NCBI GenBank assembly: GCA_000753575.1
Contig: JRFF01000053.1
Location: forward strand, 89,641 to 121,640
DNA from: Candidatus Izimoplasma sp. HR2
Lineage (GTDB): Bacteria > Bacillota_I > Bacilli_A > Izemoplasmatales > Izemoplasmataceae
Length of the DNA: 32,000 bases
Direction: 5' to 3'
Under the pieces are notes generated by a model that was not told the DNA's origin, searched no databases, and was given only the letters and a program-made list of their open reading frames with translations. Every line of letters starts with the position of its first letter. Position 1 is the stretch's first letter. Below are positions 28,555 through 31,492 of this stretch, piece by piece. The position numbers and the translations under genes were made by a program.

Positions 28555-29103
28555 CTAACTGTCTATGTTCGCATATTGAGCGTTATCTACAATAAATTGT
28601 CTACGTGGTGCGATCTTAGTCCCCATCAAGACAGTAAACGTTTCTTGCGTTTCTTCTTCATCCTCTATTTTGAATTGAATAAGTTGTCTATCATTTGGGT
28701 TAATTGTTGTTTCCCATAATTCTTCTGGGCTCATTTCACCAAGTCCTTTAAGATAACCTATTGATGCACCTTTATGAGTCCTCGCAAATTCACTAGCTTC
28801 TTTTTGTGTATATAAATAAGTTTTTTTATTCCTATAAGTTGCAATATACAATGGAGGAACTGCTGCATAAACATACCCTTGCTCAAATAATGGTCTCATA
28901 TAGTTAAATAAGAAAGTTAAAAGTAAAGTTCTAATATGGCTACCATCTACATCAGCATCAGTAAGAATTATAATTTTATCATATCTAAGTTTAGTTATAT
29001 TAAATTCTTTTCCAATCCCACAGCCAAAAGCAGTAATCATAGCGTTTATTTCATTATTTTTTAATAGTTTTGAAAGGTCATTTTTTTGGCTATTAAGAAT
29101 TTT
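28555..29103 (-). CDS. gyrB: type IIA topoisomerase subunit B, exon 2 (Toprim/tail)
   Basis: [59 protein letters not shown]. Frame is continuous from 29103. TAG stop. Confidence 0.85.
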
Positions 29104-30142
29104 CGTGTTAGTCCCATGTTTCCATGGGCACTGACTATATCTTACTCTAAGAATTGTTAATTCTATTATAGAGCACTCCGTTTCGAATTGCGTATCAATA
29201 GCAACCCTACTCCCGGTCTAACCCAGGATAGTCGATACAAGTATTATTTTATATGTTTATAACTTTTTCTAAGAACTATACTACGCATTGGATTATATGT
29301 TACTTTGTATATACAAGCTAGTTCAGTTGTGGTTTTTTCTTTATTGTCATATAATCTTCTTATTTCTAATATTTCTTCTTTAGAGAATCTTAATACTCCA
29401 GTTTGAGCATGTTTTATTTTTGGAATATTCCCTACTGTTCTATAACTTACTCCATGGATAATATTTCTAAAAGTATCTTTACTAGGGTACAACTCTTTAT
29501 AATCTTTTCAAATTTGAGCAGGAGTTTCACCGTCAATATACCTTTGTCTAATTTTTATAACTTCTTTATTAGACAGTTTTGCTCTTGGATGATTTTGATC
29601 ATTTAAAGCTTTTGTTTCCTTCAATGTATTTAATCTTTTATCCTTTACTTCTTTTGAAGATAATATTTCTTTCGCTACAAAATTTCCACCTTTAGTTGAA
29701 TTGTATCCATTTTTAAAACTATTATAAAAAGATATTCAATATATTTCTTTTTCATTTAATTCTTTTATTGAGCATTCTTCTAAAATTTGAATTTCAAAAT
29801 TTTCAAGTCCATATTTTCTTAAAGCTTGATAAAATTTTGTATTATAGCAACAATTCTTTGGATTATTAAATGCATATTTATGTTTGTTACTAATTCTTTT
29901 TTCAATATTAATTGATTGCCCAATATATCTTTTTCCATTTGTTTTATTTCTAAAACAATATATACCTATCATTATATTACTCCTTTGATAATAAAGCATA
30001 TAACATATAAAATAATCATTACTCACGGGATTAACTTCACCTAAACAAATTTTAACATATTTGTGTAATGGTCAGCCTTCCCCGTTAGCCACTAAAGTGA
30101 CCCCGGTGATTACCGGTTAGAAGTGTGAGGGCAAAATTACTT
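29104..30142 (-). mobile_element. group I intron (1039 nt) interrupting gyrB, carrying a GIY-YIG ORF
   Basis: Exon 1 ends in U (..AAGGGU). P1 pairs exon AGGGU with intron GCCCU, including a U.G at the splice site. P10 pairs intron AAUUUU with exon 2 AAAAUU. The intron ends in G (..CUAACACG). The spliced product reads LPLKG-KILN as in intact GyrB. Confidence 0.8.
29244..29972 (-). CDS. intron-encoded GIY-YIG homing endonuclease (242 aa with TGA=Trp)
   Basis: MIGIYCFRNKTNGKRYIGQS..KRISNKH..NTKFYQALRKYG. Joins track ORFs through TGA 29736-29738 and 29508-29510. ATG 29972 after AAGGAG. Confidence 0.8.
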
Positions 30143-31492
30143 ACCCTTTAATGGCAATACTGCTTGTATTTTTCTATCACGAGCAAACTTTATTGAACCA
30201 GCAGCGCTGTCTCCTTCTACTAGTAATATTTCGCTATTTCCTTTATTCGCATTTTGACAATCAGTAAGTTTACCAGGCAAGACTATTGCTCCACCTACTA
30301 CACTTTTTCTTCTTACTGTTTCTCTTGCCTTTTTAGCTGCTTCTCGAGCCTTTTTAGCTAGAGATGCTTTCTCTAAGATTTTTACTATGTCTGTTTTAAA
30401 GTTAACAAAATATTGTTTTAATGCTTCTGTAGATATTTTACTTACATAACTTCTACCTCTAGCATCTGTTAACTTGTCTTTAGTTTGTCCATCGAATACT
30501 GGTTCAGGCATCTTTAAATTGATTATTAAAGTCAATCCTTCTTTTAAATCTTCCCCAGTAAAGTTACTATCTTTATCTTTAAGAATTTTTTCTTTCTTTG
30601 CAAAATCATTAGCTGTTTTAGTAAATGAACTTCTAAATCCAGTTAAATGTGTTCCAGCACTATTAGGGATATTATTTGTATAGAGTTTTACTTTTTCATT
30701 TGTTCCTGTATTGAATTGCACAGCAATCTCAACAGTAGCATCTTCAATGTCTTCTTCACAATAGAAAATATTTTTATGAACTAATTTTTTATCTTTATTT
30801 AACATATTAACATAATCTATTAATCCATTCTTACTTAAATATTCTATTTTCTCATTAGTGATTTCATTTTCAAGTTCAAACCGCATCCCTTTAGATAGAT
30901 AAGATAATTCTTCAACTTGTCTTTTGATTGAATCAAAATCAATTTTAGCATCTGTAAAGATTTCATTATCTGGTAAGAAATGTAGAGTTGTTCCACTAGA
31001 AATATTCTTTCCTATCTCTTGGACTTCTCCTTGAACTACACCACGTTTAAATTTTACTTGATAAGTTATTCCATTTCTATTTATAGTAAGTATTAACCAT
31101 TCTGATAAAGCATTAGTTGCTTTAATTCCAACTCCATTTAATCCACCAGAGCTATTGTATCCAGAATCTCCAAATTTACCACCTGTATGTAACATAGTTA
31201 ACAAAGCTACGAGAGAATGAGTTCCATCTTCCATTAATCCTATTGGCATACCTCTGCCATCATCCTCTATAGAAATTGATCCATCTTTATGAAGTTTAAT
31301 TTTTATAGAAGTACCAAATCCATTCAAATGTTCATCGATGGCATTAGAAATAACTTCTAAGATGATATGGAAGACTCCTTCAGCTCCGATAGACGAGACG
31401 TACATGCCTGGTCTAGTTCGAATCGCTTCAATGTCTTCTAAATGTCTTATTGCATTTATACCATAGTTGTCTAATTCTTTTTTTATTTCCAT
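30143..31492 (-). CDS. gyrB: type IIA topoisomerase subunit B, exon 1 (ATPase, transducer, start of Toprim)
   Basis: LEAIRTRPGMYV, EVISNAIDE, LNGVG and EILLVEGDSAAGS. The TAA at 30137-30139 in the track ORF lies inside the intron. Confidence 0.85.

Follow-up and report, generated by a model that had tools for sequence, protein, structure and literature searches.

The stretch of DNA analysed here, called the window throughout, comprises 32,000 nucleotides (nt) of contig JRFF01000053.1 from Candidatus Izimoplasma sp. HR2 (assembly GCA_000753575.1, positions 89,641 to 121,640; G000:C53:89641-121640 in our notation), a phage contig within a 2.1-Mb assembly. On its minus strand, which was read directly over 28300-32000 with open reading frames (ORFs) listed under genetic code 4, the gyrB gene lies in two pieces (31492..30143 and 29103..28555) separated by an insert of 1039 nt (30142..29104), as a sequence-only reading of the window had described. 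Within the insert lies an ORF for a GIY-YIG homing endonuclease (29972..29244), and downstream of gyrB is gyrA (28247..25890). We propose that what separates the two pieces is a T4 td-type mobile group I intron (td-like, IA2-like), situated in a phage gyrB between Gly-450 and Lys-451 of the conserved LPLKG/KILN motif (a slash marks the point of insertion) and carrying in its P6 loop the gene for an I-TevI-like GIY-YIG endonuclease, an interpretation to which we assign a probability of about 0.93.

The two pieces of gyrB have the properties of exons. Exon 1 (450 codons) encodes the ATPase and transducer domains and the start of Toprim and ends in LPLKG, its last codons up to 30143 (TTA AAG GGT) being followed by AAG TAA, which closes the frame. 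Exon 2 (182 codons plus a stop, 549 nt) begins at 29103 with AAAATTCTTAAT (AAA ATT CTT AAT) and, in frame, encodes KILNSQK, the rest of Toprim and the GyrB C-terminal domain. In Pfam, exon 1 matches HATPase_c and DNA_gyraseB, exon 2 matches Toprim and DNA_gyraseB_C, and by Pfam and alignment the joined exons hold the complete GyrB domain set of GHKL ATPase, transducer, Toprim and C-terminal domain; gyrA, like both gyrB exons, is an intact ORF with its full domain set. A protein search with exon 1 recovered intron-less GyrB homologues, P0002 (88% identical) and P0003 (76% identical, full-length at 643 amino acids), that run uninterrupted through QAVLPLKGKILN, and against these the window's exons abut with 0 residues lost or gained, so that the exon boundary drawn at LPLKG/KILN in the sequence-only reading holds residue for residue. 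A start codon and a ribosome-binding site were looked for near the 5′ end of exon 2 and neither was found; in its frame an ATG first occurs 21 codons into the exon (29040), with no purine-rich Shine-Dalgarno sequence before it, and a start there would drop the KILN motif. A terminator scan of 28100-32000 found none, and promoter-like sites in that region occurred only at chance level.

The splice-site pairings claimed in the sequence-only reading could be located. The intron begins with AAGTAATTTTGCCCT at 30142, and its internal guide sequence GCCCU (30132..30128) pairs with exon AGGGU (30147..30143) to form the 5 base pairs of P1, including the U.G at the splice site (U30143.G30132), with 3 more pairs within the intron. 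Adjoining the guide sequence is the P10 strand AAUUUU (30138..30133), which makes 6 base pairs with AAAAUU of exon 2 (29103..29098), and the intron ends, as had been claimed, in a G (29104), the terminal guanosine (omega G), which is also the final residue in 12 of 12 hand-checked members of the subfamily to which this intron belongs. The P1 and P10 pairings are more than chance, because the junction matches the homologues exactly and because related introns inserted elsewhere keep the same pairing scheme through compensating changes; the guide tracks the exon, being GCCUC where the exon reads GAGGU (L001, L193).

The remainder of the RNA can be followed helix by helix on either side of the endonuclease ORF. 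The 5′ strand of P3, CACUUC (30125..30120), begins 2 nt past the guide sequence and pairs with GGAGUG (29179..29174), which comes after GAAAC. Between P3 and the joining segment J3/4 are hairpin A, CCGG-UAAUCA-CCGG (30116..30103), seen in covariation and in the minimum-free-energy (MFE) fold, and hairpin B, GUCAC-UUUA-GUGGC (30101..30088), seen in the MFE fold and in column counts for the 5′ half; these two hairpins and the P7.2 loop are shared by the members of the subfamily. J3/4 (UAA) then precedes the 5′ strand of P4, ACGGGG (30085..30080), one pair of which changes from G-C to A-U with compensation in 11 of 46 sequences, and whose 3′ strand, UCCCGU (30030..30025), is likewise placed by covariation. 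P5 (30077..30033, from the MFE fold and the column counts for the 5′ half) has a long extension that is also present, with compensating changes, in L117, L091 and L193. P6 pairs GAGUA (30024..30020) with UACUU (29243..29239), which lies directly past the stop codon of the endonuclease ORF; this helix was placed by eye and appears in the fold of L117, an ORF-less homologue at the same site, and in relatives it reads GGGA with UCCU or GAUAACUA with UAGUUAUU. Next come J6/7 (GUAUC, 29238..29234) and, immediately after it, the P7 5′ strand GACUAU (29233..29228), which is invariant across the subfamily and the same as in a T4-like td intron. P7.1 (29227..29212) is supported by covariation and the MFE fold, and P7.2 (29207..29185) has a 9-nt loop, UAUUGAUAC, and 7 of 7 pairs that covary. 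P8, comprising CUCUA...UAGAG and an inner helix (29173..29145), comes from the MFE fold and is homologous in position to td P8; the following J8/7 (UAAGAU) and P7 3′ strand (AUAGUC), together the group I 'S' element (29144..29133), are placed by the match to td and by column counts for the 3′ half. The last helix, P9 (29128..29113), is capped by a GAAA loop, has 6 of 6 pairs covarying and leaves 9 nt to the end of the intron.

Comparative evidence for this structure was drawn from both halves of the intron. In the MAFFT alignment of 3′ halves (A4, n=57 including the window), 98.8% of cells were paired (shuffles 76%, slid controls 34-44%), with 286 double compensatory changes and with every pair of P7.2 and P9 covarying; in that of 5′ halves (A5, n=46 including the window), 91.5% of cells were paired vs 75.5% in shuffles and 31-49% in slid controls, with 140 double changes. 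Given 8 ORF-less members, RNAalifold predicted hairpin A, P4, P5, P7, P7.1, P7.2 and P9 with 22 compensated pairs, and folding the window's own two halves gave P1, hairpins A and B, P4, the extended P5, P7.1, P7.2, P8 and P9. The long-range P3 pairing was assessed by a bounded-interval permutation test, versions that searched 65 nt or kept the offset fixed being uninformative or out of register, and was better within introns than between them, 0 of 2000 permutations being as good. P3 and P6 both appear in the fold of L117, the former in the MFE and centroid folds alike. Hence a P3-P7 core, on the modelling of which the sequence-only reading had staked its claim, can be drawn, with P3, P4, P5, P6, P7, P7.1, P7.2, P8 and P9 all placed and most of them backed by covariation. 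A tertiary pairing of J6/7 (GUAUC) with the complementary GAUAC in the P7.2 loop, which would make a pseudoknot, was considered and rejected, as the variants found among matches to our subfamily model (R1, below) are non-compensatory: GUAAC occurs with GGUAC, GUAUC with AGCAC or GACAC, and GUAGA with GAUAC.

The ORF in the P6 loop encodes a protein of 242 amino acids, ends exactly where the P6 3′ strand starts and has its own Shine-Dalgarno sequence (AAAGGAG, 29986..29980, recognised from sequence). Its identification as a GIY-YIG protein was upheld by Pfam (PF01541 at 39.5 bits, cut-off 22.6), by PHROG homing-endonuclease families, which match residues 1-181, and by alignment of residues 3-92 to the catalytic domain of I-TevI (1LN0/1MK0, E 1e-6), in which GIY, YIG and NGYN are conserved along with the positions of Arg-27 and Glu-75, thus including the catalytic Arg, Glu and Asn. 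Pfam and PDB sequence searches with residues 100-242 gave no significant match and no named domain. The ORF contains exactly two in-frame TGA codons, which are both of its Trp codons, so that the earlier remark that it shares the code of the rest of the window holds. Trp-79 (29738..29736) aligns to a Trp of I-TevI (FWI) and is Tyr in the L193 orthologue; Trp-155 (29510..29508) is also Tyr in that orthologue and is Phe in Enterococcus phage VRE9_3, as read by eye from the L001 DNA. The GC (guanine plus cytosine) content of the ORF is 23.7%, vs 31% for the gyrB exons and 35-41% for the intron core. The 7-mer GAGUAAU occurs twice on the minus strand, at 30018-30024, where it contains the P6 5′ strand just after the P4 3′ strand, and at 29976-29982, where it overlaps the endonuclease Shine-Dalgarno sequence; the P6 3′ strand could pair with either copy and might occlude the ribosome-binding site, although the repeat is possibly a matter of chance.

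Because the TGA at Trp-79 precedes the catalytic Asn and the entire DNA-binding half of the protein, while the orthologue of a phage with the standard code has Tyr at both positions, it is conceivable, though we hold it to be rather unlikely, that the endonuclease gene now depends on the altered genetic code of its phage. Were this so, the endonuclease would be produced only where the UGA-reading tRNA of the phage itself is active and would be dead on homing into a standard-code phage, and homing endonucleases would find their spread gated or obstructed by stop-codon recoding.

The intron belongs to an abundant subfamily. A blastn search against deposited phages found its 3′ core at 92.5% identity in Enterococcus phage VRE9_3 (PP680569) and more weakly in Enterococcus phage EF1 and Lactococcus phage P1048 (MN552145). 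The VRE9_3 element also carries a GIY-YIG ORF, and compensating changes set its P1, hairpins, P7.2 and P9 apart from those of the window; its host gene resembles the large terminase and is annotated there as several small hypothetical proteins. This VRE9_3 gene holds two unannotated group I introns (L001:1621-2629 and ~2770-3540), of which one carries a GIY-YIG ORF and the other an HNH ORF. In P1048, an ORF-less, unannotated copy of 313 nt (L003:2321-2633) splits gyrB at SKG/LGEL, the exons appearing as separate hypothetical proteins. A pattern built from the conserved segment from P7 to P7.2 found at least 119 stretches in IMG/VR, about 40 of them in gyrB-like genes by tblastn with the window's exons; among the matches listed, the occupied gyrB motifs are EG/DSAGG, LPLKG/KILN (that of the window), DxDxDG/SHI and KG/LGEM. 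An IMG/VR locus search with exon 1 alone returned zero relatives. Some 20 members of the subfamily, including L034, L082, L084, L020, L032, L045, L074, L075, L086 and L112, have an extra conserved insert of ~30 nt with GUUUUAGGAAACGAAG between P7.2 and the GAAAC before the P3 3′ strand, which resembles an additional peripheral hairpin; a variant of it occurs in L193 and L195.

Copies at the window's own site differ in ways that bear on mobility. In L117 precisely this position (QAVLPLQG/KILNSEK) is occupied by an ORF-less copy of 297 nt, its core nearly identical to that of the window, and the gyrB of L117 (L117:1700-5300, minus strand, on a contig of the IMGVR_UViG_3300035499 type) contains three group I introns, at LPLQG/KILN, DxDxDG/SHI and KG/LGEM, two of which belong to the window's subfamily (R1, 116 and 95 bits) and one to another (32 bits). 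L193 and L195 carry a 1.18-kb copy at the window's site even though exon 1 of their GyrB shares only 46% identity with that of the window; the guide of these copies is fitted to their own exon (GAGGU with GCCUC), and their endonuclease is orthologous, being 45% identical over its full length. When insertion states were scored by tblastn in 80 gyrB loci of the P0060 clade, 52 were uninterrupted, 17 had an insertion at KG/LGEM, 5 near residue 25, 4 at DxDxDG and 2 at LPLKG/KILN, the site used in the window. Such patchy presence at conserved motifs is the pattern that homing elements produce. The insertion near GyrB residue 25, 1.1 kb long and seen in L148-L150, L152 and L172 of this clade, would be a fifth gyrB site, its intron nature being putative. 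Co-conversion of exon flanks was considered and rejected: over the 30 nt that precede the junction, L117 agrees with the window at 87% identity, which is no evidence of co-conversion because the motif encoded there is highly conserved, both genomes are AT-rich and other 30-nt blocks are 80-83% identical.

Several observations weigh against the insert being a td-type intron that is spliced. The Rfam model RF00028 (Intron_gpI) found no match in the window as a whole at the gathering threshold and none in 28900-30300 at E≤10, so the Rfam check proposed in the sequence-only reading was negative as written. P8 is placed from folding, the spliced junction is itself predicted from sequence, and the match of the endonuclease to I-TevI is limited to the N-terminal 92 residues, the DNA-binding half having no named domain. 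Moreover, the window intron departs from td in having no P2 between P1 and P3, in having two covarying hairpins between the P3 5′ strand and J3/4, and in its P9, which is one GAAA hairpin followed by 9 nt and lacks both P9.1 and P9.2. The Rfam result reflects the model and not the intron: ORF-less members of the subfamily (L117, L064, L084 and L016:2958-3202) likewise escape RF00028, which nevertheless detects different td-like introns in those loci, such as L016:6369-6595 at 85 bits. R1, a covariance model of the 3′ half of the subfamily, scores the window at 116.9 bits, which is mid-range for the subfamily (118-124 bits for the three cultured-phage copies, 62-131 bits for the pattern-matched IMG/VR members), and it also matches both a T4-like td intron (E 6.7e-5) and an RF00028-positive td-like intron (E 7.7e-6). 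The core helices, the covariation, the R1 score and the homology to td together support the earlier claim that a group I intron interrupts gyrB.

Other explanations of a divided gyrB have to account for this RNA. Genes for topoisomerases and reductases are truly split in some T4-like phages, as in gp39 and gp60 of T4 with mobA, or NrdA of Aeromonas phage Aeh1 with mobE, and the window's two pieces do show up as separate ORFs, so that one might picture a free-standing endonuclease cassette lodged between two cistrons whose products assemble after translation, with no splicing involved. The 5′ end of exon 2 offers neither a start codon nor a ribosome-binding site, and use of the ATG at 29040 would sacrifice KILN, which speaks against two separately translated pieces. 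In addition, a complete and covarying group I core surrounds the endonuclease ORF, and same-site copies of ~300 nt with no ORF (L117) are inexplicable by a nuclease cassette; we consider a truly split gene very improbable. We regard as scarcely more probable a group I intron that has decayed and no longer splices, leaving gyrB a pseudogene in this phage. That splicing is predicted and that Rfam is silent are both compatible with decay, but all modelled helices can form in the window, its R1 score is that of an average member, and the endonuclease ORF, with its catalytic residues, the gyrB exons and gyrA, with their full domains, are all intact. The positions invariant in A4 and A5 are present as well, necessarily so, since the window is the first row of each alignment.

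An intein would be a natural suspicion in a gyrase gene, gyrase subunits being common intein hosts (GyrA of phage MarsHill is one example), and a group II intron was considered alongside it. Reading frame and RNA structure rule out both: the insert provides no in-frame extension of GyrB, the frame stopping two codons past the junction, a domain search of the insert found neither Hint nor reverse-transcriptase domains, and the RNA core is that of a group I intron.

We suggest that the td-type intron would operate in the following way. Transcription would run through the intron, and translation of exon 1 would halt two codons into it (AAG UAA), while the intron RNA adopts its P3/P7 pseudoknotted core. 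Free guanosine bound at P7 would then attack after U30143, which the guide GCCCU keeps in place within P1, P10 (AAUUUU with AAAAUU) would line up exon 2, and exchange of the terminal G29104 with ligation of the exons would yield an mRNA for an intact GyrB of 632 amino acids, able to act with GyrA from the gene just downstream. The intron ORF would be translated from its own Shine-Dalgarno sequence with UGA read as Trp, and the resulting endonuclease may cut the intron-less gyrB of co-infecting relatives, repair of which would copy the intron in.

For annotation, the consequence is that gene callers give a truncated GyrB of 451 amino acids and a fragment of 161 amino acids and Rfam is silent, so that the phage would appear to lack an intact gyrase. 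The same error is present in deposited genomes, the gyrB exons of P1048 being labelled hypothetical proteins, and the failure of RF00028 even on ORF-less copies amounts to a systematic blind spot of automated annotation for an abundant intron subfamily. Two short ORFs flank the gyrB exons on the minus strand, one of 105 amino acids between gyrB and gyrA (28229-28546) and one of 122 amino acids just upstream of gyrB (31501-31869); each has a good ribosome-binding site and no match in Pfam or PHROG. The phage contig contains one copy of the subfamily described here and, outside the window, a second td-like group I intron of another subfamily (G000:C53 ~33460-34240; L128 ~913-1690) with an HNH ORF of 177 amino acids. 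This second intron interrupts a large-terminase-like gene after FVTTAG; its halves score 28-37 bits with RF00028, which is below the cut-off, and its 3′ half 33 bits with R1.

The closest known system is the td intron of T4 with its endonuclease I-TevI. The window intron and an ORF-less T4-like td intron have in common UAAACGGGGAA, AAUCCCGUG, CGACUAUCC, GGGAGUAGGGU, UCGAAAC and AGAUAUAGUC, strings that correspond to J3/4-P4, the P4 3′ strand, P7, P7.1, the start of P7.2, GAAAC and J8/7 with the P7 3′ strand. Both also place P7.1 and P7.2 between P7 and the P3 3′ strand, a feature of subgroup IA2, and, like td with I-TevI, the window intron houses its endonuclease ORF in the P6 loop and stops the exon-1 frame just inside the intron. 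In contrast, P7.2 of the window has the conserved 9-nt loop UAUUGAUAC, the host gene is gyrB rather than that for thymidylate synthase, and the C-terminal half of the endonuclease has no sequence match to the zinc finger and helix-turn-helix of I-TevI, the ORF moreover writing Trp as TGA. With no P2 and with two hairpins between P3 and P4, the subfamily may represent an undescribed structural variant of the IA introns that lies outside the coverage of Rfam.

As to published gyrB introns, searches of the open-access literature for phage group I introns in gyrB or in genes of gyrase or topoisomerase II gave nothing direct apart from a preprint on MarsHill-like phages. There, gyrB is interrupted by introns, inferred from protein alignments, that vary in presence and position among related phages, and the GyrA of MarsHill carries an intein. 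Intron interruption of a phage gyrB is common to both systems, the window's case being that of an uncultured, TGA-recoded phage. The window intron is thus real but an ordinary selfish element, phage gyrB introns having already been reported, and it leaves the existing understanding of group I introns and GIY-YIG endonucleases unchanged. Its points of interest are modest: a less common site, LPLKG/KILN, which raises to four the gyrB motifs occupied by a single abundant td-like subfamily, a gap in Rfam coverage, and a homing endonuclease written in a code in which TGA is recoded as Trp.

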